A stretch of DNA of 64,000 nt from Patescibacteria group bacterium. Its GTDB lineage: Bacteria > Patescibacteriota > Microgenomatia > JAMCYU01. Each line of letters starts with the position of its first letter. The stretch's first letter is position 1. The stretch spans positions 66,033 to 130,032 of the forward strand of contig JAMCYU010000004.1 in assembly GCA_023473585.1 (NCBI GenBank). Direction: 5' to 3'. This document shows, piece after piece, positions 2,134 through 49,689 of the stretch. The notes beneath the pieces are model-generated. The model was not told the origin of the DNA, ran no database searches, and saw only the letters and a list, made by a program, of their open reading frames with translations. The position numbers and the translations under genes are program-made.

Positions 2134-2156
2134 CAATTTAATTGAATATTTATATC

Positions 2157-2210
2157 GAAGATAAATGAGCAAATATCTTCGATTAATTTCGCTTTGCTCA
2201 TTATCAAGAG
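2157..2210 (+). repeat. copy of dispersed 47-bp inverted-repeat module (family also at 37237-37367 and 39721-39779)
   Basis: gataaatgagcaaatatcttcgattaatttcgctttgctcattat is ~80% identical to unit gattaattcgtttcgctcattatatcaaagataaatgagtgaacttt. Arms ATAAATGAGCAAA and TTTGCTCATTAT are inverted complements. Confidence 0.5.
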
Positions 2211-2448: not shown

Positions 2449-3555
2449 ATGACTTATCAATATTTTACTTCCGAGTCCGTAGCCGCCGGACATCCCGATA
2501 AAATTTGTGACCAGATTTCCGACAGTATTTTGGATGAGGCGATAAAAGTTGATCCCCAAAGCCGCGTCGCTTTGGAAACAATGGTGACCAAACAAAGAAT
2601 CGTTTTGGCCGGAGAGGTAACCTGTTTGGCTAAATTGGATTTTAAAAAAATTGCCAGAAAAAAGATTAAAGAGTTGGGCTACATCGATAAAATCTATCAA
2701 TTTACCGATCGATCCCCGATTTCCGTTTATATCCACAAACAATCGCCGGATATTGCCAGGGGCGTTGATGATGGTGGTGCCGGTGATCAGGGGATGATGT
2801 TCGGTTATGCCTGCAGGGAGACGCCGGAGCTGATGCCCCTGCCTATTACCTTGGCTCATCGGTTGGTGGAAAAAATGGATGAATTAAGAGAAAAAAAAGT
2901 GCTTGCCTATCTTCGGCCCGATGGTAAAAGCGAAGTTAAGGTTAAATATTTAAACGGCATCCCAAAATCTGTCGAACAAATAATTTTGGCGGTTCCCAAT
3001 CGTCCGGAAATTTCAAAAGAAAAACTGGCAAGAGATTTATTTATAAAGGTCATTAGTCCTGTACTCAAAAATTACGGTTACACGGTAACCCAAGATAAAG
3101 TGATTATTAACGGTACGGGAAGATGGGAAATCGGCGGACCGGTCTCCGATACCGGCGTCACGGGCAGAAAAATTGCGGTTGATACTTATGGCGGCATGGG
3201 AAGGCTTGGCGGCGGTTGTTTTTCCGGTAAAGATCCGACTAAGGTCGATCGTTCCGGTGCTTATGCGGCCAGGTTTATCGCTAAAAACATTGTCGCCAAA
3301 AATTTGGCTGATCGTTGTGAGGTTCAATTGGCCTACGTAATTGGCTATCAAAAACCGGTAACTTATGCGCTGGAAACCTTTGGAACCGAAAAAGTTAAAA
3401 TCAGCAAAATTAAAAAATTAAGCCTGGAAATCTTAGATCTTTCCGTATCGGGCATCGTCAATAATTTAAAATTGCGGCAGCCAATTTATGCGCAGAGCGC
3501 TTGTTACGGGCATTTTGGCCGGGATATTTTTCCTTGGGAAAAAATTGTTGTATAA
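2449..3555 (+). CDS. metK: S-adenosylmethionine synthetase
   Basis: 368 aa. N-terminus FTSESVAAGHPDKICDQISD and GGGCFSGKDPTKVDRSGAYAAR match bacterial MetK. Confidence 0.9.
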   Translation: MTYQYFTSESVAAGHPDKICDQISDSILDEAIKVDPQSRVALETMVTKQRIVLAGEVTCLAKLDFKKIARKKIKELGYIDKIYQFTDRSPISVYIHKQSPDIARGVDDGGAGDQGMMFGYACRETPELMPLPITLAHRLVEKMDELREKKVLAYLRPDGKSEVKVKYLNGIPKSVEQIILAVPNRPEISKEKLARDLFIKVISPVLKNYGYTVTQDKVIINGTGRWEIGGPVSDTGVTGRKIAVDTYGGMGRLGGGCFSGKDPTKVDRSGAYAARFIAKNIVAKNLADRCEVQLAYVIGYQKPVTYALETFGTEKVKISKIKKLSLEILDLSVSGIVNNLKLRQPIYAQSACYGHFGRDIFPWEKIVV

Positions 3556-3598
3556 TAATGAGTGAAACGAATTAATCAAAGATGAGGAGGTGATAATT

Positions 3599-3850
3599 AT
3601 GAGCGATAAAAAAATTGGCAAGATAACTCATTTTTACGATAAAATCGGAGTCGCGGTTGTTTCCTTGTTCGGAGGATTAAAGGTTGGTGACCAGATAAAA
3701 ATTTCCGGACACGATCAGGAATTTTCCCAAACTGTCTCGTCAATCCAAATAGAACACGAAAAAATTAACGAAGCCAAAAAGGGACAGATTGTCGGTTTAA
3801 AAGTCGAAAAGCCGGTTAAGGAAAGCGACGAAATTTTTAAAGTTGAATAG
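3599..3850 (+). CDS. hypothetical small protein, EF-Tu domain-2-like beta-barrel
   Basis: SD GAGGAGG at 3583-3589. GGLKVGDQIKI...IVGLKV pattern resembles the beta-barrel of translation GTPase domain II. Confidence 0.3.
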   Translation: MSDKKIGKITHFYDKIGVAVVSLFGGLKVGDQIKISGHDQEFSQTVSSIQIEHEKINEAKKGQIVGLKVEKPVKESDEIFKVE

Positions 3851-6841: not shown

Positions 6842-7894
6842 ATGATTGACTTAAACGACGAAAAGTTGGTGTCAAGTCTGGATAAGGCGAGGATGCTTGA
6901 GTCCATCAGGTTGCTACCCGATCAGTGTCGTCAGGCTTGGGAAGAAACCAAAAAAATTCAAATACCCTCTTCTTATATGGCGCAAACCTCGCAAATTATC
7001 GTTTCCGGTATGGGTGGTTCCGCCCTTGGAGCCCACATTATTAAAAGTCTTTTTCACCAAGATTTATCTTTACCCGTCGAAATTATTAATGACTATCATC
7101 TGCCGGGATACGTTGATTCCCGAACCCTTCTCCTTCTTTCTTCCTACTCGGGTTCAACCGAAGAAACGCTTTCTACGGCTTTCGAGGGCCTAAAAAGACA
7201 AGCTAAAATTGTCGGGATTACCACCGGAGGTAAATTAGGCAGTTTTCTTGAGGAAAATCATTTTCCCGCTTATATTTTTAAACCTCAATTTAATCCCTGC
7301 GGCCAACCGAGAATCGGTTTAGGCTATTCTATTGTCGGCCAAATCGGTTTGTTAAGAAAAATCGGTCTCTTAAAACTAGACGAAAATGATTTTTATCAGA
7401 CGATTGACTCATTGAGCCGGGAAAGCGAAACTCTCAAGAAAGAAGCCAAAGCCATGGCGGCAAAAATACAGGATAAAATCGTTGAAGTTATTGGGGCGAG
7501 TCATTTATCCGGCAATGCCCACGTTTTGGCTAATCAATTAAATGAAAACAGCAAAAACTTCGCCGGGTTTTTCTTCTTGCCGGAGTTGAATCATCACCTG
7601 ATGGAAGGACTAAAAAATCCAAAACAGAATAAATTAATTTTTCTTTTTCTTAGGTCCTTATTTTATGATGAAAAAATTAAGTTGCGATTAAAATTAACAC
7701 AGGAAATCATTGCCAAAAACAATTTGCCGTTTTTAGAATTTGAGTCCCACGGTGAAAATAAATTGGCGGAAGTTTTTCAAACTCTGCTCTTCGGCAGTTT
7801 TTTAAGTTTCTATTTATCTATAATTTACAATCAGGATCCCTCGGTCATTCCCTGGGTTGATTATTTTAAGGAAAAACTGGCAAAAGCCTCTTGA
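6842..7894 (+). CDS. bifunctional phosphoglucose/phosphomannose isomerase (archaeal-type PGI/PMI, SIS domain)
   Basis: 350 aa. SIS motif VSGMGGSALGA and overall similarity to the PGI/PMI family. Confidence 0.55.
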   Translation: MIDLNDEKLVSSLDKARMLESIRLLPDQCRQAWEETKKIQIPSSYMAQTSQIIVSGMGGSALGAHIIKSLFHQDLSLPVEIINDYHLPGYVDSRTLLLLSSYSGSTEETLSTAFEGLKRQAKIVGITTGGKLGSFLEENHFPAYIFKPQFNPCGQPRIGLGYSIVGQIGLLRKIGLLKLDENDFYQTIDSLSRESETLKKEAKAMAAKIQDKIVEVIGASHLSGNAHVLANQLNENSKNFAGFFFLPELNHHLMEGLKNPKQNKLIFLFLRSLFYDEKIKLRLKLTQEIIAKNNLPFLEFESHGENKLAEVFQTLLFGSFLSFYLSIIYNQDPSVIPWVDYFKEKLAKAS

Positions 7895-19260: not shown

Positions 19261-19474
19261 TTTTATGCCAACGATTTCTTCTTGGTTCACTTTTTTCGAG
19301 TCCACCAGAATTCGGATTCTGAGAACAAAGACCGAGGCATTTATTTCTTAAAGCAGCGTTTTTATGACCTAAGCGATTTTCTGGGTCTTTGTGGCTCCAA
19401 TAATTATAAATTTGTGAACATTTTCGAGAGATAACACCGCCAAAATAACCTTGTTCACTCGTATTGTGACCCAT
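19247..19474 (-). CDS. hypothetical small Cys/His-containing protein
   Basis: 75 aa ORF antisense between uvrB and uvrA. Perfect SD AAGGAGG 5 nt upstream of the ATG on the minus strand. Confidence 0.35.
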   Translation of the reverse strand: MGHNTSEQGYFGGVISRKCSQIYNYWSHKDPENRLGHKNAALRNKCLGLCSQNPNSGGLEKSEPRRNRWHKITIS

Positions 19475-19573
19475 CTTTTCCTCCTTATGCAGTTTCTTAC
19501 TGACGGATTATACCACATAACCGTAAACCCTTTCTAATCTTTCTCTTTTCTGGTATAATTTTACGTCCTTTAT

Positions 19574-22489
19574 ATGCAAGATGAAATTATTATCCGGGGA
19601 GCCAGGGTTCATAATCTCAAAAACGTTGATGCAAAGATTCCCAAAAATAAACTCGTCGTTTTTACGGGTTTATCCGGCAGCGGCAAGTCTTCCATGGCTT
19701 TTGATACCATTTACGCCGAGGGACAAAGACGCTACGTTGAATCCCTTTCTGCTTATGCCCGGCAATTCTTAGGCGTTATGGATAAACCCGACGTTGATTC
19801 TATCGAGGGACTTTCTCCGGCCATTTCGATTGATCAAAAATCCGTCTCTCATAACCCGCGCTCCACGGTCGGAACCGTCACCGAAATTTATGATTATTTA
19901 AGGTTGCTTTTTGCCCGCATCGGTCATCCTCATTGTCCGAATTGCGGTCGGGAAATCAGCCAGCAGTCAAGTCAACAGGTTGTTGAACAAACCCTAAGTT
20001 TAACCACAAAAATTTTAGACTCAAAAAAACAAGTCCGACTAATGATTCTTTCGCCGGTGGTCAGGGATCGCAGGGGAGAATTTAAGGAACTTTTTAAAAA
20101 TCTTCAAAGCAAAGGTTTCCAAAAGATAAGAATTGACAAACAAACTTATTCCCTAACAGACGACCTTACCCTTATCAAAACCAATAAACACACGATCGAG
20201 GCGGTTATTGACCAGCTGACGATTGATAAAATCCTTCTGCGGCATCAGGATAAATTACTTAATCTTAAAACCCGGTTAAACGACAGTATTGAACAGGCGT
20301 TAAAATTAGCCGATGGCTTAGTTATCGTGGCTGAAGTTTTGGATGCTGATTTTAATTTTCCGGAAAAACCCCAAAAATTTGCCGATCATCTTTTTTCCGA
20401 ACATTTCTCCTGTCCTGTCTGTAACTTAAGTTTACCACCCCTTGAACCCCGAACTTTTTCTTTTAATTCGCCTTACGGCGCCTGTCCTCAATGCTCCGGA
20501 TTGGGAACTCTTTTGAAAGTTGATGAAACTTTAGTTTTAAATCCCAATTTATCCATTACCGAAGGCGGTCTTCTTCCTTTTGCGAAGGCTTTTTTCCATG
20601 AAACTTGGTTTTCCCGAATTATTTTAAACGTCTGTCAAAAACAAAACATCAACCCGCGTTTGCCGCTTTCTTCTTTATCGGCAGAACAAAAAAGAATTCT
20701 TCTTTACGGAACCGGGGAGGAAATCCATGTTGTTGAAGGAAAAAATCGTTTCGGCAGTTTAACTCATATCCATGAAACTTTTGCCGGGATTATCTTTGAA
20801 TTAGAAAGACACTATCGGGAAACCGAATCTGATTATGTGAGGCTTGAAATAGAAAAATACATGCGGCGGGAAATTTGTCCCGAATGCCGGGGCGGAAGAC
20901 TTAAAAAGGAAGTCCTGTCGATCACGATTAACGGGCAATCAATTATTGAAATCACCAATTTATCAATCAGGGAAGCTTTGTCCTGGATTAACAATCTAAG
21001 CCTTCATCTTTCCGTTAGGGAGCAAACCATTGCTCACTTGGTGATCAAGGAAATTAAAACCCGGCTTAGCTTTTTAAACTCGGTCGGTTTGGATTACTTA
21101 ACCGTCGATCGGGGAACCCAAACCCTAGCCGGTGGGGAAGCCCAAAGAATCAGACTGGCTTCTCAAATCGGTTCCGGACTTTCCGGTGTTTTATATGTTT
21201 TAGATGAGCCGTCCATTGGTTTGCATCCAAGGGACAATCACAAGCTCATTGAGACCTTAAGAAATCTTCGCGATTTAGGCAATACCGTTATCGTCGTCGA
21301 GCACGACCGGGAGATGATCGAATCCGCCGATTTTATTTTTGATTTTGGGCCGGGTGCCGGTGATCATGGCGGTCAAATTGTGGCGACGGGAACTTTAAAC
21401 CAGATAAAAAATCATCAAGATTCTTTAACGGGGGCGTATTTGGCGGAAAGGAAAAAGATTAAAGTCGAACCGTCTTCCGCTTCTTCCGCCGCTCATTTTT
21501 TAAAAATTAACGGCTGCCAACAGTTTAATCTTAAAAAGATTGATGTCTCTTTTCCTTTAGGCAAGTTTATTTGCGTTACCGGCGTTTCCGGTTCCGGCAA
21601 ATCAACCCTCATTGTGGAAACCCTTTATCACGCTTTAGCCCAAAAAATTAATCCCTACCATCGGGAAAAACCAGGCAAATTTGAAAGCCTTGAAGGTCTG
21701 GATTATGTCAATAAAATTATTTTGATTGATCAGTCGCCGATTGGCCGGACACCAAGATCAAATCCGGTAACTTATACCGGCGCTTTTAATTTTATCCGCG
21801 ATTTATTCGCTCAAACACCCGAAGCTAAAGTCCGCGGCTATAAAACCGGAAGATTTTCCTTTAATGTTAAGGGGGGAAGATGTGAAGCCTGTGAGGGCGA
21901 AGGTCAAATAAAAATCGAGATGCAATTTTTACCCGATGTTTATGTGGATTGCGAAGTCTGCCATGGTCAAAGATATAACCATGAAACTCTCGAAGTCACC
22001 TTTAAGGGCAAAAACATCGCCGAAATCTTAGACATGACCGTTGAGGAAGCTTTAGTTTTCTTTACCCATATCCCGACGCTTGTTGATAAACTGCAAACTT
22101 TAACCGATGTTGGTTTGTCTTACATGCATTTAGGGCAGCCGGCGCCAACTCTGTCAGGCGGGGAGGCGCAAAGAGTTAAATTGGCCAGTGAGCTTTCCAA
22201 GAGAGCCACGGGGAAGACTTTGTATATTTTAGACGAACCTACCACGGGACTTCATTTTGCCGATTTAGAAAAATTGCTCCTGGTTCTCAAACAATTAGTG
22301 CAAAAGGGCAATACGGTCGTTATCATCGAACATAATCTTGATGTCATCAAAAACGCCGATTATCTTATTGATTTAGGCCCCGAGGGCGGAGACAAAGGAG
22401 GATACTTAGTTGCCAGCGGGACACCTTACGAGGTATCCTTAAAAAGGAAAGAGTCTCAAACAGGCCAATTTCTGGCAAGAATACTTTAG
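19574..22489 (+). CDS. uvrA: excinuclease ABC subunit A
   Basis: 971 aa, two ABC ATPase modules, zinc-finger cysteines; N-terminus IIRGARVHNLKNVD typical. Confidence 0.95.
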   Translation: MQDEIIIRGARVHNLKNVDAKIPKNKLVVFTGLSGSGKSSMAFDTIYAEGQRRYVESLSAYARQFLGVMDKPDVDSIEGLSPAISIDQKSVSHNPRSTVGTVTEIYDYLRLLFARIGHPHCPNCGREISQQSSQQVVEQTLSLTTKILDSKKQVRLMILSPVVRDRRGEFKELFKNLQSKGFQKIRIDKQTYSLTDDLTLIKTNKHTIEAVIDQLTIDKILLRHQDKLLNLKTRLNDSIEQALKLADGLVIVAEVLDADFNFPEKPQKFADHLFSEHFSCPVCNLSLPPLEPRTFSFNSPYGACPQCSGLGTLLKVDETLVLNPNLSITEGGLLPFAKAFFHETWFSRIILNVCQKQNINPRLPLSSLSAEQKRILLYGTGEEIHVVEGKNRFGSLTHIHETFAGIIFELERHYRETESDYVRLEIEKYMRREICPECRGGRLKKEVLSITINGQSIIEITNLSIREALSWINNLSLHLSVREQTIAHLVIKEIKTRLSFLNSVGLDYLTVDRGTQTLAGGEAQRIRLASQIGSGLSGVLYVLDEPSIGLHPRDNHKLIETLRNLRDLGNTVIVVEHDREMIESADFIFDFGPGAGDHGGQIVATGTLNQIKNHQDSLTGAYLAERKKIKVEPSSASSAAHFLKINGCQQFNLKKIDVSFPLGKFICVTGVSGSGKSTLIVETLYHALAQKINPYHREKPGKFESLEGLDYVNKIILIDQSPIGRTPRSNPVTYTGAFNFIRDLFAQTPEAKVRGYKTGRFSFNVKGGRCEACEGEGQIKIEMQFLPDVYVDCEVCHGQRYNHETLEVTFKGKNIAEILDMTVEEALVFFTHIPTLVDKLQTLTDVGLSYMHLGQPAPTLSGGEAQRVKLASELSKRATGKTLYILDEPTTGLHFADLEKLLLVLKQLVQKGNTVVIIEHNLDVIKNADYLIDLGPEGGDKGGYLVASGTPYEVSLKRKESQTGQFLARIL

Positions 22490-31530: not shown

Positions 31531-31853
31531 CAGAAAAGATATGTTTTAAGCGAGGGCTCTTTGGAGCGCTTCCCGGATATTTTTGCCGCCAAACCAACCT
31601 TTAAGATATAAAATTGTGTGTTTGTTCCGATGCCAGTCCTGAAGATAATATTTATCAATACGTCCACCCCTTTTTAAGAAAATAGCGATTAGTTCATCGA
31701 TAGAGGATTTTGTATTTATACCTTATTATAACACACCCAAAATTTAATTTCTCCGAGAGCTTGATAAGCTTCTTGTAACTTGATAAAATAGTTTTAATTG
31801 CCTCGAGCAGACGCGTTACAACGCGATTTGGTATAATCAAATCGCTAGTTTTT

Positions 31854-35644: not shown

Positions 35645-36205
35645 ATGAAAATCAATTTTCTTAGCGTTAACAATCAAGATGGTCTTATTGAAGGAATTAA
35701 GCTCTTTAAACTCAAAGTTAACCGCGATTCAAGAGGCATCCTCATGGAAACCTTTAAAACAAGCTGGCCAGAGGTTTTTGGTCCGGATCTTCCCTTCGGC
35801 CAAAGTTATTGTTCGGTAACCAACCCGGGTTTTGCCCGTGATGAGGATCGCTGGCATTATCACCCGACCAAACAAACGGATAGATTTGTTGTTGTCAAAG
35901 GAAGCGCCGTTTTCGCTATTTACGATTCGCGAAAGGATTCGAAAACTCGCGGACATTTAAATCTTTTTTTGATGGGGGATATAAATGGGGACAAAGGACA
36001 CTATCTTTTGGTTATTCCCCGTAATGTTCTGCACGGATTTTGCGTGGTAAGCAGGGAGCCTTGTTATCTTATCTCTTATATTTCCACCCTGTACGATCCC
36101 AATGAAGAGGGGAGAATTTCCTTTACGGAATCAGGCGTGGTCTTTCCTGACGGAACACCATTCTCTTGGAAACCGGTAAGAGAACAGTTTATCTCCCAAA
36201 AGTGA
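35645..36205 (+). CDS. RmlC-like cupin (dTDP-4-dehydrorhamnose 3,5-epimerase/sugar ketoisomerase family)
   Basis: 186 aa. [17 protein letters not shown]...HGF pattern typical of RmlC/FdtA cupins. Confidence 0.5.
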
Positions 36206-37232
36206 GAATATCTTCATCCGCAAGTTTATGATTAAGACCGACGTTTTGGCCTGGAAATTTCACCGATTGACCCCAGACTTTGGCCTCTTTAACTTGCAAT
36301 TCTTGAGAAATCTTAAAAACGGCGTCTTTAACGGTTTGCCCTTTTTTTAAGATTAACGGTTTGTCTTTATCGGCTTCACAACCTGGCGTTTTTAAATACA
36401 CTCTGATTAAATTTAATTCTTGCCAGATTTTTTCTTTTAGTTCTTCAACCCCTTGGCCTAAAAGTCCGGAAAGATAAAGAAAATCGGGGTTTTTTTCATA
36501 ATTATTCCGCTGATCTATTTTGTTGATAACGGTTAAAGCCGGCAGATAAACCCGGTTGCCTAAAAAGGCATCAATTAATTGGTTAACGTTTAGGTCTTCT
36601 TTCACCTGAATTTCCGCGTTGACCAAACGAAATTCCGAAGCTATGGCCAAAGCCAGACTGACGTTACTTCTTAAACCACCCTTGGCTTTCTTTTTGATCA
36701 GGACAAGCGGCGGCTTTTGATTAATTCTGACACCGGCGGCATAAAGCTCTGTTTCGATGCTTTTTAACTGTTCTTCACTTTTTTGAATGTCCAAAATTAA
36801 AAGCAAAAGATCGGCTGATCTGACCACGGAGAGAATCTCCCGGCCCCGTCCCTTGCCCTTGGCGGCGCCTCCGACCAAGCCCGGCAAATCCAAAATCTGG
36901 ATTTTCGCCCCCTTATAATCCATCATCCCCGGAATCACGGTTATGGTCGTAAAGGCATAAGGCGCCACCCTGGAATTGGCCTCGGTCAGAAGGTTTAAAA
37001 GCGTTGATTTACCCACCGAAGGATAACCGACCAAAACGACGGTCGCGTCACCCTGCTTGGCCACGGCAAAAGCCGCCCCACCGCCGCCTTTTTTACTTTG
37101 TTTTTCGGCCAGTTCGTCTTCGAGTCTGGCAATCCGCGCCCGCATTTTTCCCAGATAATGATCGGTTCCCTTATGATGAGGGGTTTTTCTGATCTCTTCT
37201 TCAATTTGGGCAATTCTTTCCTGAATTTCCAT
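36189..37232 (-). CDS. DRG-family Obg-like GTPase with C-terminal TGS domain (archaeal/eukaryotic-type)
   Basis: Near-colinear match to DRG1: [11 protein letters not shown]...[42 protein letters not shown]...YAFTT...PG...[13 protein letters not shown]...[10 protein letters not shown]. Confidence 0.8.
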
Positions 37233-37236
37233 AAGT

Positions 37237-37367
37237 TGATAAATTATTAATTCGTTTCGCTCATTATATCAAAGATAAATGAGTGAACTTTGATTAATTC
37301 GTTTCGCTCATTATATCAAAGATAAATGAGTGAACTTTGATTAATTCGTTTCGCTCATTATATCAAA
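37237..37367 (+). repeat. tandem array (~2.7 copies) of 47-bp inverted-repeat module
   Basis: Unit gattaattcgtttcgctcattatatcaaagataaatgagtgaacttt repeats exactly at 37292-37338 and 37339-37367, with a variant first copy. On the minus strand each unit reads TGaTATAAT (extended -10) facing the DRG gene. Confidence 0.85.
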
Positions 37368-37412
37368 AAAGCCTCTCTTGAAAAGAATCGATAATTAGCG
37401 TATAAAAGATTC

Positions 37413-38228
37413 ATGAGGAAAAAAACGAAAAACGCGAACTTTTCTTCTCAAGATTTAATCCGCATCCCGACGGAAAGTAACGAACTTTTGGAAAAAGTTC
37501 TTCAGGAAATAAACCGAAATGTTGAGGTTAAAACGCTTTGGCGGGTCATGAACGTTAACGCTATCGAACGCCTGCACATGACCGATCACGGCTCGGTCCA
37601 TTTTCAGATTGTGGCCAACAGCGGGCTTCGCTTATTGCGGCTTTTGGTTAAAAGAAAAATTGAAATGTCCGTGACCAAAAATTATAAACTTTCCCATAAA
37701 TACGCCGAACTTGTGGTTTTGCTGGCCAGTCTTTTTCATGATTTGGGCATGTCGATTAATCGGGAAGGCCATGAAGACTTTAGTTTGTTTTTGACGGAAA
37801 ATCTTCTTAAAGATTTTTTATCTTTTCTACCGACCGAGGAAAGAGTCATCATTAAATCAGAAGTTTTACACGCCATTATCAGCCACCGCAGTGACGGCCG
37901 GCCTATTACCGTTGAAGCGGGGATTATGAGAGTGGCCGACGCTTTGGATATGAGTCAGGGACGCTCCCGGATTCCTTTTGAGGCCGGAAATATCGACATT
38001 TACTCCATCTCCGCCTACGCCATCGATAACGTCGAAATCAAGGAGGGTAAGGAAAAACCGGTCCAGATTAATGTTTATATGAATAATTCCTCGGGTATTT
38101 TCCAGGTTGACCAGCTTTTGAAAAGCAAGTTGGAAAACTCGGGTATTTCGCAATATATTGGGATTAAAGCTTTTGTCGTCGGCGAAGCGGAGAAGAAATT
38201 AATCAACGAGTTTGATCTAACGCCCTAA
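37413..38228 (+). CDS. HD-domain phosphohydrolase-like protein
   Basis: H..H...HDLG...H pattern (HGSVHFQ, FHDLGMS). Confidence 0.4.
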   Translation: MRKKTKNANFSSQDLIRIPTESNELLEKVLQEINRNVEVKTLWRVMNVNAIERLHMTDHGSVHFQIVANSGLRLLRLLVKRKIEMSVTKNYKLSHKYAELVVLLASLFHDLGMSINREGHEDFSLFLTENLLKDFLSFLPTEERVIIKSEVLHAIISHRSDGRPITVEAGIMRVADALDMSQGRSRIPFEAGNIDIYSISAYAIDNVEIKEGKEKPVQINVYMNNSSGIFQVDQLLKSKLENSGISQYIGIKAFVVGEAEKKLINEFDLTP

Positions 38229-39276: not shown

Positions 39277-39337
39277 AAAATTTGCTTGCAAAAAATCCTT
39301 TTTGCAAAAGTCGTTTCGCGAGTAAATTTTCAGGGTA
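39277..39337 (-). repeat. ~62-nt palindromic hairpin element (paralog of 30094-30162)
   Basis: Minus strand CCTGAAAATTTACTCGCGAAACGACTTTTGCAAAAAGGATTTTTTGCAAGCAAATTTTTAGG is ~80% identical to the 30.1 kb element. Overlaps the GIY-YIG stop codon and abuts the 5' end of tRNA-Lys. Confidence 0.5.
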
Positions 39338-39596
39338 AACCCTTCTTTTTATTTAAAATTAGTTTAATTTTATAATCCCTAGCCCATTTTTTAATAGCGC
39401 TTTCTCTTTTTCGTGCCTCTGATTGATTATTATATTCTTCAAAATATTTGAGTGTTACTGGTCTCTTTGGTCTAAGTGATTTTGCGCCTTTAATATTATC
39501 ATTATTATGTTCTATTATCCTTCTTTTGATATCGGTCGTTATTCCTGTGTAAAGGGACCCATCACTACATTCTACAATATAAACATACCACTTCAT
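39330..39596 (-). CDS. GIY-YIG nuclease family small protein (YhbQ/UPF0213-like)
   Basis: 88 aa; YVYIVECSDGSLYTGITTDIKRRIIEHN is a GIY-YIG motif. No SD; the ATG is 6 nt after a hairpin. Confidence 0.7.
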   Translation of the reverse strand: MKWYVYIVECSDGSLYTGITTDIKRRIIEHNNDNIKGAKSLRPKRPVTLKYFEEYNNQSEARKRESAIKKWARDYKIKLILNKKKGLP

Positions 39597-39705: not shown

Positions 39706-39720
39706 TTAACTTATTTTGTA

Positions 39721-39779
39721 AAAAATGAGCAAAATTATTGATATTTCTTTGATTAATTCGTTTCGCTCATTATATCAAA
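39721..39779 (+). repeat. partial copy (~1.3 units) of the 47-bp inverted-repeat module
   Basis: gattaattcgtttcgctcattatatcaaa (39751-39779) is identical to the 37.3 kb unit; preceded by the aaaaatgagcaaaa arm. Minus-strand TGaTATAAT faces tRNA-Arg. Confidence 0.6.
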
Positions 39780-40386
39780 TTTGTTCTTTTTTTGCTTCGC
39801 CGATGGTCGAAACTTCGCCGTGGCCGGGGTAGAGAATGGTTGCTTTGGGTAATTTAAATATTTTGTTTAAAGATTGATCCAGATCTTTTTTGGAGCTATA
39901 AGAAAAATCCGTGCGGCCCAAACCGTTGGCAAATAACGTATCACCGGAAAAAATAACCCCTTGACCCAAAAGACTGATCCCGCCTGGCGTATGGCCGGGC
40001 GTTTCCATAACTTTTAAAACCTCTTGCCCGAACTTAATTTTTTCTTTCTCTTTTAAAAAACGGTCAGCCGAAGGAGCCGGATCAACGCTAATGCCTAAAA
40101 AATATTGGGCGCTTTTTTGCGCCTGTTTTAATAAAAAGAGATCTTTTGCATGAATCAAAAAGGGGATTTGGTAGGCTAATTTAAGCTCCAAAGCCGCCAG
40201 GACATGATCAAAATGAGCGTGAGTTGCCAAAAGGGCCGTGGGTTTGAGCTTAAGGTCGGCAATTTTAGCCTCGATATAAGCGGCCGCCTCGCCCGGATCA
40301 ATAATCAAGGTTTCTTTGGTTTTTTCGTCCCAGACAAGATAACAATTCGTTGCCAACTGTCCAACGCTCAGTCTTTGCACCTTCAT
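39775..40386 (-). CDS. MBL-fold metallo-hydrolase (glyoxalase II-like)
   Basis: THAHFDH zinc motif; 203 aa. Confidence 0.7.
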   Translation of the reverse strand: MKVQRLSVGQLATNCYLVWDEKTKETLIIDPGEAAAYIEAKIADLKLKPTALLATHAHFDHVLAALELKLAYQIPFLIHAKDLFLLKQAQKSAQYFLGISVDPAPSADRFLKEKEKIKFGQEVLKVMETPGHTPGGISLLGQGVIFSGDTLFANGLGRTDFSYSSKKDLDQSLNKIFKLPKATILYPGHGEVSTIGEAKKEQI

Positions 40387-41077: not shown

Positions 41078-41106
41078 TTGACAAGCCTATAATATTATGA
41101 TATAAT
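41078..41106 (+). promoter_or_regulatory. consensus sigma70 promoter
   Basis: TTGACA, 17 nt spacer, TATAAT (perfect consensus). Confidence 0.5.
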
Positions 41107-41112
41107 CCCCGC

Positions 41113-41290
41113 CAGATCCTGAGGTACGGAGGTATTTCACTTCCTACTTTAGGATTTTTTTATGGGCTTGTTAATGAGCCGGTAGGCAAGTTTTTACAAG
41201 CCCAAATCCTGCCAAAGCGCCCCTCGGAGGCAAGGACATAAGACTTTGCGACGAGGCAAGCGGAGGCGGATAGGAAGAGAGGTCAAGCTT
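41113..41290 (+). promoter_or_regulatory. ~180-nt structured 5' leader of the second GH73-like gene
   Basis: Long hairpin GAUCCUGAGGUA...UACUUUAGGAU followed by U7 (41124-41160); 7-codon uORF MGLLMSR (41162-41185); 8-bp stem GGGCUUGU/ACAAGCCC; three GGCAAG repeats; SD GAAGAGAGG before the ATG. Confidence 0.3.
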
Positions 41291-41943: not shown

Positions 41944-43458
41944 ATGACAAATTTAACACCAGCAGCGCAGGAATTGATTGCCGCTGTTTCGAAAAATTAT
42001 CAAGAAAAACAATCTTGGGAAAGAGAAGCCAAGATTCATAGTCAGGAAACAATTTCTTTTTTTGCTTTTCTTTATGAGAAGCTAAGAAATTTTGTGGACT
42101 ATCAGGAAGAACATCTTTTGCGCCGTCGTGCCATTACCAGAGCCTTAAGCCGGCGCCTCATCTTTCCTCAGCCAAGCGAAGAAACGGCCAGAGCTTTAAT
42201 TTTAGAGCTTATCAGGGCCCGCTATTTTCCCAATAATAAAATTCCTGAAAATAAAATCTTGGCAGTTTCTCAAATCATTGATAAGTTTTCCGGTCTTATT
42301 AAGGTCCTTCCTGAAATAAAAGAACTCTTAATCGGTTTTGCGGCGAGAGAAATTGAGGAAATTTTAACGCTCGATCATGAAACCGCCCTGCTTTTATTTG
42401 CCCAGAAGGTCTTTAAAGAAAGACTTTTGGTTAAAGACGACGCGATTCTTTTTATTGCCCTGGAGGAGGCTCTATCCCGCGCTGATGAAACGACAATCCG
42501 CTACCATTTAATCAAGTTCTCTTTGCCCAACTGGGATAACGCCGAACGCCTTGAAAAAATTAATCAGGAAATCACTCATAGACTCGCTTCCCCGGATAAA
42601 GAACCTCTGGCAAGACGCGTCAGAAAAGAAATCGCTCCCTATGTTATTTTGCGTGACTTAATCAATCAAAATGAGGCTGATTTAACCAGTATTTTTGCCA
42701 ATCCTGATCTTTTGGATAAAGTTGTCACTCAAGTGGCCTCAAACCGCTACCGTCAAGCCGCCACTAATTTACGGACGGCCGCCATTCAGAGTTTTATTTA
42801 TATCTTTTTAACGAAAATGGTTTTTGCTTTTATTATCGAGGTTCCTTATGATCTTTATATTTTACGCCGGTTTAATTTATTGCCTTTGGTTGTCAATTTG
42901 CTTTTCCCGCCGGCTTTTATGGTGATGACGACCCAAACCGTGACGATCCCTGGTTTTGGCAATACCCAAAAAATCATGAGAGAACTTAAATCGGCGATTT
43001 ATTTTCAACCGGGATTAACCATACCCAGGATTAATCTTGATCTTTTAAGCCGGGTCAGACCCTTTTTAGATCTGACTTTCAGGCTTTTTTATCTCTTAAC
43101 GTTTGTCCTGGTTTTCGGTTCCGTCGTTTATATCTTAAAGAAACTTGAATTTAGTTTAGCCTCGATGGCCGTTTTCTTCTTTTTTGTTTCCACCGTTGCC
43201 TTTTTTGCTTTTAGAATTCGCCGCAACTTCGGTGATTTAACGATTGCCGAAGAAAAAGAAGGACTTTTGAGCGGACTTTTCAATTTTATCTCTTATCCTT
43301 TTATACGACTGGGTCTGGTCTTTTCCAAAGCTCTCTCCCGGTTTAACATTTTTATCTTAATTTTGGATCTTTTAATTGAAACACCTTTAAAAATGGTTTT
43401 TGAATTAATTGAGGAATGGTTTGCTTTTATTAGAAGAAAACAAGAGGAGATTCTTTAA
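41944..43458 (+). CDS. hypothetical membrane protein (N-terminal soluble domain, C-terminal multi-TM)
   Basis: ~505 aa, no recognisable motif. Confidence 0.4.
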   Translation: MTNLTPAAQELIAAVSKNYQEKQSWEREAKIHSQETISFFAFLYEKLRNFVDYQEEHLLRRRAITRALSRRLIFPQPSEETARALILELIRARYFPNNKIPENKILAVSQIIDKFSGLIKVLPEIKELLIGFAAREIEEILTLDHETALLLFAQKVFKERLLVKDDAILFIALEEALSRADETTIRYHLIKFSLPNWDNAERLEKINQEITHRLASPDKEPLARRVRKEIAPYVILRDLINQNEADLTSIFANPDLLDKVVTQVASNRYRQAATNLRTAAIQSFIYIFLTKMVFAFIIEVPYDLYILRRFNLLPLVVNLLFPPAFMVMTTQTVTIPGFGNTQKIMRELKSAIYFQPGLTIPRINLDLLSRVRPFLDLTFRLFYLLTFVLVFGSVVYILKKLEFSLASMAVFFFFVSTVAFFAFRIRRNFGDLTIAEEKEGLLSGLFNFISYPFIRLGLVFSKALSRFNIFILILDLLIETPLKMVFELIEEWFAFIRRKQEEIL

Positions 43459-43462
43459 AGAA

Positions 43463-44512
43463 ATGAAAAAATTTATTCTTTTTATTTTTATTATTTTTGT
43501 CGCTTCAATTATCTTTATTGCCAGATTAACTCGACAGGGAACTTCTGCTCTTAAAACGGAAAAAGTGCAAAGGGGAACAATTACGAAAAGCGTGTCTGCT
43601 TCCGGAGAAATAACCTCGGAAGAAATTGCCGAATTGAAATTTCAAACCTCAGGGCAACTTGCCTGGGTTGGGGTTAAAGAAGGTGAACAAGTCCAGGCTT
43701 AGCAAGCCCTTGCCCAACTTGACACCAGAGAACTTCAGAAAACTTTAGAAAAATACTTAAGGGATTATGCCAAACAAAGAAACGATTTCGAGGAGATGAA
43801 TCGGGAAACCTATCGCGGACAAACACCCTCAACCGCTCTCACTAATACCGTGAGGCGAATTTTAGAAAAAAACCAGTGGGACATGGATAAAGCGGTTTTG
43901 GATGTTGAATTAAAGGATATCGCCTTAAAATATGCCACTTTGGTAACGCCCATCTCGGGCATCGTCACGCAAGTGGAAACACCTCTCGCGGGAATAAATA
44001 TTACCCCGTCAACGGCCGTTTTTAAAGTCTCTAATCCCGAAAAAATGATTTTTAAGGCTAATCTCGACGAGACCGATATTGCCGGCGTTGTCCCCGGTCT
44101 TAAAGCCCAAGTGACACTCGATGCCTATCCTGAAGAAAAATTTGCCGGAGAAATAACTAAAATTGCTTTCCAGGCAATCACAACTTCGGGCGGCGGAACG
44201 GCTTTTCCCACCGAAATAACTTTGCCGCAAAATGAGAATTTTAAATTTAAATTAGGGATGAACGGTGATGCCGAAATTATCTTGCAAACAAAAGATGATG
44301 TCCTTAAGGTCTCTTCGGAAGTTTTAATGAAAAGTGACGATAAAAATTACGTTTGGTTAGTTGTCGGTAAAAAAGCCAAAAAACAGGAAGTTCAAACCGG
44401 CATCGAGGGAGAAGAAGCCGTCGAAATTACCAGTGGCTTAAAAGAGAATGATATTGTTATTAAGTCGGGAACCTCCAAAATCAAAGAAGGTCAAAAAATT
44501 GACAGCCAATGA
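43463..44512 (+). pseudogene. HlyD/MacA-family periplasmic adaptor subunit interrupted by an in-frame TAG at 43700-43702
   Basis: ORFs 43409..43702 and 43796..44512 share a frame. Sequence ...VGVKEGEQVQA*QALAQLDTRELQ spans the stop and fits the adaptor pattern V.EG..V..G..LA.LD. N-terminal TM anchor; beta-barrel/MP domains downstream. Confidence 0.55.
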
Positions 44513-48793: not shown

Positions 48794-48813
48794 AAAATGT
48801 TATAATTCCCCCC

Positions 48814-49689
48814 ATGACTATTGCCGTCAATAAGTTAGCCAACGGGACTATTGAATTAACGATCACCATTCCCTGGTCGGAGATTAAATCTGCCTATGAT
48901 TTGGTCGTTGATGATCTGATTAAAGAGACTGAATTACCGGGCTTTCGAAAAGGAAAAGCCCCGCGAAACCTCGTGGAAGAAAAAATGGACAAGAGCAAAG
49001 TTTATGAGGAAGTTTTGAAAAAAATCGTGCCGCAATATTACGCGACGGCCATTAAACAAGAAAATCTTGCCCCCATTGTTTCCCCGCAAATAGAAATAAT
49101 CGCCGCCAAAGAAAAAACCGACTGGCAATTTCGGGCCAAAACCTGTGAAAAACCAGAAGTTAAGTTGGGAAATTATCAGGAAGCGATCGCTTCTCTTAAA
49201 AAAGAAAAACAAACGAAAATCTGGGTCTCGGGCAAAGAAGAAAAACCGGAGAAACCCGCCGCTTTGACTCTCGATGAAATCGTTAAGGCCCTGCTTTCGG
49301 TTTGTCAGGTTCAAGTACCCGACCTTTTGATCGAAGACGAAGTCAATCGCATGCTTTCAAGACTGGTTGATCAAACGCAAAAACTTGGCCTAACCATTGA
49401 ACAATACTTGGTTTCGCAAAATAAAACCTCGGAGAGTCTTCGCGAAGAATATAAATTTCAAGCGCAACAGACTTTAGCTCTAGAGTTTATTTTGGAAGCG
49501 ATTGCCGATCAGGAAAAAGTTGAAGTCAACGATGCGGAAATTGAAAAAATTATTCAGGAAGTTAAAGACCCGAGAGAACAGGCCGCCTTAAAATCACAAA
49601 AATATTATTTAGCCACAATTTTGCGTCGACAAAAAACGCTGGAGAAATTAAGCGGCTCCCTTGACACTGCCTCTAAACCCATAGTATAA
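48814..49689 (+). CDS. tig: trigger factor (short form, no recognisable PPIase domain)
   Basis: Ribosome-binding signature GFRKGKAP near the N-terminus; 291 aa. Confidence 0.65.
   Translation: MTIAVNKLANGTIELTITIPWSEIKSAYDLVVDDLIKETELPGFRKGKAPRNLVEEKMDKSKVYEEVLKKIVPQYYATAIKQENLAPIVSPQIEIIAAKEKTDWQFRAKTCEKPEVKLGNYQEAIASLKKEKQTKIWVSGKEEKPEKPAALTLDEIVKALLSVCQVQVPDLLIEDEVNRMLSRLVDQTQKLGLTIEQYLVSQNKTSESLREEYKFQAQQTLALEFILEAIADQEKVEVNDAEIEKIIQEVKDPREQAALKSQKYYLATILRRQKTLEKLSGSLDTASKPIV

Follow-up and report, generated by a model that had tools for sequence, protein, structure and literature searches.

A very small repeat of a Microgenomates genome that probably inserts 3' of the -10 box and restores it

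Several families of short bacterial repeats resemble the one that we describe here. Elements of the IS200/IS605 family insert their left end 3' of an element-specific tetra- or pentanucleotide and do so without target duplication (PMC5027513). Correia elements (CREE) of Neisseria are 104-157 bp long and have 26-bp terminal inverted repeats of the TATAG[CT]GGATTAA... type, a TA target duplication, and IHF and RNase III sites (PMC2649163). Putative mobile promoters (PMPs) are stretches of near-identical promoter-region DNA upstream of non-homologous genes in one genome; they form an operational class, set at ≥50 nt with ≥80% identity, and not a mechanism, and tRNA genes lie outside the definition (PMC3488235).

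Our repeat comes from a Candidate Phyla Radiation (CPR) bacterium of the Microgenomates group, whose nearest named homologues are Gottesmanbacteria proteins at ~67% identity. We analysed a stretch of 64,000 nt, which we call the window, together with 25 fetched loci that are cited below by number where they need to be told apart. The description that fits the repeat best is that of a miniature insertion element, restricted to one lineage, by which a -10 box is targeted and then regenerated; as such it falls within the known class of small non-autonomous bacterial repeats. With IS200/IS605 elements and their miniature derivatives (PATEs) it shares insertion 3' of a short specific target, in one orientation and without a long target duplication (PMC5027513), the lack of true terminal inverted repeats, and a right end that resembles the target; it also has inverted repeats that could form hairpins. 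On the 3'-of-target rule that serves as the criterion for PATEs, a pre-existing ATAAT lies directly 5' of the insertion at three comparable empty sites and a fourth site fits the geometry; a 3-bp target duplication is also compatible with the junctions, where AAT is ambiguous. In contrast to IS200/IS605, the unit here is only 47-62 nt long, its target is a 5-6-nt -10-like box, and it has two interleaved stems instead of separate left-end and right-end hairpins, with the right arm of the first repeat being internal. A PATE would also be expected to have a TnpA (Y1 HUH) gene in the same genome and insertions with a strand bias relative to replication. We saw no TnpA gene among the scanned ORFs of the window or in what Pfam lists for the fetched loci.

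Like REP and REPIN sequences, which RAYT transposases mobilise, the repeat is short, extragenic, hairpin-forming, non-autonomous and lineage-restricted, and can be compared with their range of singles, inverted pairs and tandem clusters (PMC3116915, PMC3337134). A REPIN replicates as a long hairpin of two inverted REPs; here the arms GATAWAATGAGYRAA are inverted and pairing, but the left copy of the -10 belongs to the target at metK and tRNA-Arg. The differences are that no copy here has the conserved 5' GTAG head of the REP, an imperfect palindrome of 20-40 nt, that the repeat is AT-rich whereas REPs are GC-rich, that its unit is asymmetric with a tail of 15-19 nt beyond the 3' arm, and that it lies in promoters whereas REPs are mostly downstream of genes. 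In addition, a RAYT gene usually has REPs on its flanks and a genome has tens to hundreds of them, but we saw no RAYT in the window and the copy number looks low, at four loci per 64 kb. With Correia elements the repeat has in common a small intergenic insertion, strain-variable presence and ends that create -10 sequences near genes (PMC2649163), but there is no sequence similarity and the element here targets, then replaces, an existing -10 box. We rejected a Correia element because both sequence and architecture are unrelated. As compared with PMPs, the ungapped block common to the GTPase and tRNA-Arg copies is ~31 nt, reaching about 45-56 nt only with gaps, and the insertion site and boundaries are resolved here.

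The window has a single strong tandem array according to Tandem Repeats Finder, at 37246-37367, with a 47-bp period, 2.6 copies, 100% matches and a score of 244. The 47-mer had 2 matches in the window at ≤1 mismatch, against 0 expected from shuffles. An initial annotation, made from the sequence alone, had placed a 47-bp head-to-tail array of 2.7 copies at 37237-37367; the array is real within the narrower bounds just given. The phase that was claimed for the unit is wrong, and the biologically meaningful one runs GAG...TATAAT on the minus strand.

This array occupies a 180-nt divergent intergenic region. Downstream of it is a DRG-type GTPase gene (36189..37232, minus strand; MMR_HSR1, MMR_HSR1_Xtn and TGS domains by Pfam), and on the other side is an HD-domain gene (37413-38228, plus strand) that has its own promoter, TTGAAA-17-TATAAA, 6 nt before the ATG. 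Along the minus strand, the GTPase promoter has a native extended -10 box, TGATATAAT (37357..37365), that L006, L007 and L025 also have at their empty sites. The element inserted at this box, which is the first of three -10 boxes in tandem. Next comes a complete 47-nt unit, GAGCGAAACGAATTAATCAAAGTTCACTCATTTATCTTTGATATAAT (37310..37356), which is absent from L006 and L025, and then a second complete 47-nt unit that is 100% identical to the first (37263..37309). A remnant of a third unit, GAGCGAAACGAATTAATAAT (37243..37262), equals the full unit minus a 27-nt internal deletion. After it comes, exactly, the native 5' leader of the GTPase gene, TTATCAACTT (37233..37242), which lies outside the element and runs into the ATG; it is identical at the empty site of L025, where it stands directly after TGATATAAT, and its counterpart in L006 is CTATCAACTT. 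In this way three extended -10 boxes, 47 bp apart, precede the GTPase gene. The description of this region as a triple tandem promoter stands as far as the sequence goes, while promoter activity itself is only predicted.

A second copy is found between the stop codon of an MBL-fold gene (39775-40386) and tRNA-Arg. The 29-nt identical piece with a variant arm that had been noted at 39721-39779 is there, as a 28-29-nt block identical to the array unit, GATTAATTCGTTTCGCTCATTATATCAA. The insertion target is again a native extended -10, TGATATAAT (39769..39777, minus strand), which overlaps the MBL-fold stop codon; the box also occurs in L006, 13 nt from the tRNA. The element copy that follows is a long form, GAGCGAAACGAATTAATCAAAGAAATATCAATAATTTTGCTCATT (39724..39768, minus strand), and is absent in L006. 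It passes into a diverged tail (39706-39723) that reaches tRNA-Arg, and the terminal -10 box is missing.

The copy described earlier at 2157-2210 is also genuine, with an nhmmer E-value of 2e-14 at 2149-2209. It is a 52-nt member of a divergent subfamily, GAGCAAAGCGAAATTAATCGAAGATATTTGCTCATTTATCTTCGATATAAAT (2148..2199, minus strand), in the metK leader just 5' of a SAM-I riboswitch, and corresponds to a clean 52-nt gap against L009. The target, CTTGATAAT (2200..2208, minus strand), is on the antisense strand of the leader, and the empty site of L009 reads gaatATTATCAAGAGCGG. On the plus strand the target reads ATTATCAAG, which the riboswitch alignment puts at the 5' edge of P1.

The initial annotation missed a fourth locus, a partial copy that consists of the 5' arm and core only, TATAATAAT then GAGTGAAACGAATTAATCAAAG (3551..3581, plus strand). 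It lies after metK, with its TATAAT overlapping the metK stop codon, and immediately precedes the Shine-Dalgarno sequence and start codon of a small gene (3599-3850) that resembles EF-Tu domain 2. The right half of the unit, GATTAATTCGTTTCGCTCAT, has 5 matches in the window at ≤3 mismatches (0.01 expected), namely three in the array, one at 39751-39770 and one on the other strand at 3558-3577. The arm AATGAG[TC][GA]AA occurs 10 times in the 64 kb, each time within one of the four element loci. With nhmmer we found no further copies in the window beyond these four loci, and no diverged copies in all 25 fetched loci beyond those listed here.

Aligning the copies gave a unit that reads, on the minus strand, 5'-GAGYRAAACGAATTAATCRAAG-(0-14 nt)-TTYRCTCATT-TATCTTYGATATAA(A)T-3', whose end can also be written TATCTTYGATATAAT and whose variable segment of 0-14 nt is, for example, ATATCAATAATT. 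Its size ranges from 47 to 62 nt. It directly adjoins, on the 3' side, a pre-existing (T)ATAAT hexamer, in most cases a native promoter's extended -10 box; its orientation to the box is constant, and the junctions are ambiguous by ≤3 nt (AAT). The two -10 copies that flank a unit behave differently. The left one equals the native empty-site sequence (CTTGATAAT at metK and AAATTTGATATAAT at tRNA-Arg) and has an upstream context that differs from locus to locus. The right one does not vary (ATCTTYGATATAAT; ATCTTYGATATAA(A)T), and since its Y covaries with an R inside the unit we assign the 3' box to the element.

There are two interleaved inverted repeats in the unit. The first, S1, is ATCRAAGATA/TATCTTYGAT, and the second, S2, is (AAT)GAGYRAAA/TTTYRCTC(ATT) and uses the last three bases of the target. 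Their partners pair in 94.5% of cells; with the partners shifted by 1-3 columns the figure is 37-52%. At four pairs both bases change, and most of this compensatory signal comes from the one divergent (metK) copy. We also considered a classical MITE and rejected it: the 5' end is GAGYRAAA and its partner TTTYRCTC is internal, 15-19 nt short of the 3' end, so there are no terminal inverted repeats. Nor did a check for target-site duplications, which had been put forward with MITE-like behaviour in mind, give one of fixed length and arbitrary sequence; the metK flanks share only AAT, and the longer flanking TGATATAAT is constant in sequence, its right copy covarying with the element inside.

The -10 box that the element targets appears to be the usual one of this genome. 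The motif TGNTATAAT has 11 sites in the window and all 11 are within the 7.7% that is intergenic; at ten of them a gene or tRNA on the same strand starts 8-140 nt downstream. Seven of the sites are free of the element, among them those at the start of two tRNA clusters and those before several genes that appear to be leaderless. On this evidence TGNTATAAT is the predicted native promoter signature of the genome. TGATATAAT is present on the minus strand of every unit, and the claim that an extended -10 faces the DRG gene and tRNA-Arg is well founded as a matter of sequence, since it matches the native signature. We infer promoter activity for the boxes on the same grounds.

We retrieved orthologous loci through protein homologues and compared filled with empty sites. 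The GTPase promoter is empty in L006 and L007 (90% amino-acid identity) and in L025 (87%), where it is a plain ...ACATCTTTGATATAAT(C/T)TATCAACTTATG. In L008 (97%) it has a single unit, cut short at the 3' end. A stretch of 19 nt upstream of the box is also missing at this site in the filled lineages, an extra event that the insertion model does not explain. The tRNA-Arg promoter is empty in L006, with TTTGATATAAT 13 nt from the tRNA, and the window has ~50 extra nt directly after the same TATAAT. In the metK leader, a global alignment with L009 is ~95% identical except for two clean gaps, one of which is the 52-nt element. On the minus strand this insertion is exactly 3' of cTTGATAAT and both junctions share only AAT.

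The metK filled/empty pair allowed us to rule out three other models of the insertion. These were one with a TA or TAA duplication (Tc1/IS630-like), a phase with a TTGAT target (ISDra2-like), and a symmetric REPIN with the left -10 inside the element.

A fourth comparison was made with a related copy at a non-orthologous locus of another organism, L002. Here we predicted beforehand that removing the 61-nt unit would leave a leaderless TATAAT-N7-ATG promoter, and this is the geometry that L016 (92% amino-acid identity; TATAAT-taagcct-ATG) and L012 (83%; TATACT-ttagacc-ATG) have. For the other such copy, in L001, comparison with L023 gave no orthologous empty site. Because there are clean empty sites in close relatives at four loci, we consider the repeat to be an insertion and not a conserved operator or RNA gene. 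Its copy number also differs between strains.

The element appears to be confined to a narrow group. We know of about seven distinct copies. There is none in 42 kb of syntenic DNA of a relative whose GTPase and MetK proteins are 90% and 93% identical, and none in ~29 kb from relatives of the L002 organism. Seven assemblies from separate projects have the filled L002 site in identical form. Two different element patterns had 0 matches in 185,579 species-representative genomes (GTDB), and two patterns had 0 matches in IMG/VR; a pattern scan of JGI metagenomes returned 3 contigs, representing 2 further loci. The intergenic region had no BLASTN match to plasmids. Exact-protein look-ups for more strains, with the GIY-YIG and EF-Tu-D2 proteins, returned the same strain only.

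Taking these results together, we think it probable that the repeat is a family of very small non-autonomous insertion elements, within a narrow Microgenomates (Candidate Phyla Radiation) clade, that land 3' of (T)ATAAT and restore the -10 box. The suggestion of a mobile or duplicated promoter cassette in the initial annotation was thus essentially right, given the presence and absence at orthologous sites and the native signature TGATATAAT in each unit. We propose that the 3' end of the unit copies the genome consensus extended -10, TTTGATATAAT. Insertion would move the native -10 ~50 nt upstream and place an equivalent -10 in front of the original leader, so it would be tolerated even at essential promoters. 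Since the target would be re-created at the end of the element, further head-to-tail units could follow. The comparison suggests that the 37.3-kb array is made up of the native -10, two complete units and one internally deleted unit, and the extra units may have arisen by re-insertion or, just as well, by slippage of one flanking 9-bp TGATATAAT repeat against another. In a genome that is ~92% genic, promoters would be safe landing sites for such an element since the -10 box is re-created.

How the element might move is more tentative. By analogy with IS200/IS605 'peel-and-paste' or with REP/RAYT logic, the inverted repeats could be a structure that is recognised on single-stranded DNA by a trans-acting enzyme, a possibility that we regard as open to considerable doubt. 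We found no transposase, recombinase or HUH protein among the scanned ORFs of the window, the flanking genes or the Pfam listings of the fetched loci, and because there is no transposase in the window or these loci we do not claim membership of IS200/IS605 or REP. A bolder proposal, which is speculative and which we would not expect to hold in full, is that no mobile repeat had been recognised before in CPR/Microgenomates bacteria and that this one represents a new kind of mini-transposon, of the single-strand (HUH) type. Such an element would target the -10 hexamer, carry a replacement extended -10, heal its own insertion site and multiply promoters in tandem, and the pairing of target AAT with the internal ATT would be a transposon-directed choice of target as in IS608.

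If the model of an insertion element that restores the -10 box is right, a selfish element colonises tiny, dense CPR genomes through the only safe sites, the promoters, by repairing them. It would also be a natural route to promoter duplication and copy-number tuning, which here would have put three -10 boxes before the gene of a ribosome-associated GTPase. The finding would lend sequence-level support to the extended -10 (TGnTATAAT), often with a leaderless start, as the promoter type of the lineage. For annotation, such repeats should not be taken for operators or small RNAs, and they break short-read assemblies.

A serious rival, which on balance we hold unlikely, is that promoters are propagated without a dedicated transposase. 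In that case a promoter-plus-leader segment, perhaps from the 3.55-kb gene, would have been copied between promoters by homologous or microhomology-mediated recombination or by gene conversion seeded on the shared TTTGATATAAT box, with tandem units made by slippage. In the element-free relative L009 (11108-11138) the 3.55-kb site reads TATAAT|GAATTAATTGAAG|ATGAGGAGG, and the leader GAATTAATTGAAG resembles the element core CGAATTAATCAAAG. A core-like sequence thus already follows TATAAT there, and the element core may derive from that leader or recombine with it; the element may have originated at the L009 leader, or this leader may be what is left of an older, decayed insertion or have come about by recombination. 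Conversion is also suggested by the 5' arm GAGCGAAAC, which is identical in two window copies whose 3' arms differ, and there are microhomology-type indels at many junctions. The lack of a transposase among the scanned ORFs and fetched loci fits as well, as does the fact that putative mobile promoters, whose mechanism is unknown, are common in prokaryotes (PMC3488235). However, two of the insertions lie off functional promoters, one in the antisense metK leader and one, in L002, that is antisense to a palindromic -10, and share only the short ATAAT with the element. The constant position 3' of ATAAT and constant orientation also speak against this rival, and plain recombination does not explain conserved inverted repeats with compensatory changes.

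The reading of the repeat as a promoter-operator, in which a dimeric transcription factor would occupy the palindrome, block the -10 and so control the flanked genes together, is improbable. The palindromic arms do overlap the -10 box and the arm motif is exclusive to the element loci. Against this, the flanked genes are functionally unrelated (the GTPase, tRNA-Arg, the antisense metK leader, a YkuK-like gene and an AbiE-type module), and the same genes are without the site in relatives with 83-93% identical proteins. The orientation relative to genes is mixed and the copy number varies between strains. We therefore set the operator claim of the initial annotation aside.

The same annotation offered a small hairpin RNA as an alternative, and we judge a structured RNA of any kind, whether a small RNA, a leader hairpin or a terminator or processing signal, to be very improbable. 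Some changes in the inverted repeats are compensatory, and some copies would be transcribed in 5' leaders (metK and tRNA-Arg). However, no Rfam match was better than E = 0.1 and all were far below the gathering score; no family reached that score in the window, and on the array there was only sub-threshold noise. Single-strand hairpins are modest, at -4 to -11 kcal/mol, with z-scores from about 0 to -3 that are mostly not significant. Judged by wobble or mismatch positions, one copy would be encoded on the plus strand and another on the minus strand; which strand is transcribed also changes from locus to locus, and the element is absent at orthologous sites.

Finally, the array is almost certainly not an assembly artefact or a chance low-complexity repeat: the Logan unitig from SRR10267473 does stop within it, which is what a de Bruijn assembler should give for a genuine tandem repeat that exceeds its k-mer, but contig JAMCSI010000012.1 of an independent NCBI assembly (GCA_023380895.1) has the same 180-nt intergenic region with an identical 2.6-copy array, shuffles give no expected matches, and copies occur in several unrelated samples.

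We made several further observations on the features around the copies. A stand-alone 88-aa ORF with a GIY-YIG nuclease domain lies between tRNA-Arg and tRNA-Lys (39330-39596, minus strand). This ORF, which is beside the 39.7-kb copy, is also present in a relative without the element. L006 has two small GIY-YIG genes (7238-7513 and 19452-19712), and there is no co-variation with the repeat element.

Starts that look leaderless, 6-8 nt after a TATAAT-type box and without a Shine-Dalgarno sequence, occur in the window at 37401-37415 and 48798-48816, and also in L001 (800-817) and L016 (583-599). Examples are TATAAA-agattc-ATG and TGTTATAAT-tcccccc-ATG. This suggests that leaderless mRNAs may be frequent in the lineage, beside genes with a clear GGAGG.

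Two other predicted promoters are followed by conserved DNA. At 31725-31733 on the minus strand there is a perfect extended -10, TGTTATAAT, and the next ~50 nt are conserved at the nucleotide level in two relatives (L006 16679 and L008 11272). Down to about 31300 this region has no convincing ORF, no tRNA and no Rfam match at E ≤ 1, and it is a candidate for an unannotated non-coding RNA. At 41080-41245, a -35 and an extended -10 (TTGACA-N14-TGATATAAT) precede a glucosaminidase-like ORF, with a leader of 140 nt (ccccgccagatcctgaggtacggagg...) in between. This leader, which has no Rfam match, is also conserved in L006 (about 5810, minus strand) and could be a cis-regulatory RNA.

A YknX/HlyD-like membrane-fusion gene at 43409-44512 is split into two ORFs (97 + 238 aa) in the window, as against an intact gene of 349 aa in L006 (2468-3517), and is partly uncalled in GCA_023380895.1. 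The gene in the window may be a pseudogene or frameshifted.

The SAM-I riboswitch of the metK leader (2096-2448) scores 19.5 bits in the window, compared with 42.8 bits (E = 8e-9) in L009 (9823-9925). The low score is due to a second, unrelated insertion of 71 nt (about 2217-2287), which interrupts P2 and has the look of a partial second copy of the aptamer's 5' half; the element lies at the 5' edge of P1 and does not disturb UAUC/GAUA. Further upstream, the ORF at 1364-1657 is a duplicate of the C-terminal 97 aa of GlmS and is 89% identical to residues 499-595 of the GlmS of the relative. In that relative (L009 7547-9772) glmS abuts a PEMT-like gene. This strain (L011 1-6065) has ~3.6 kb of extra genes (methyltransferase, aminotransferase and NagB-like) between the full glmS and the fragment at 1364-1657. 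These genes look like an island that entered at the glmS 3' end.
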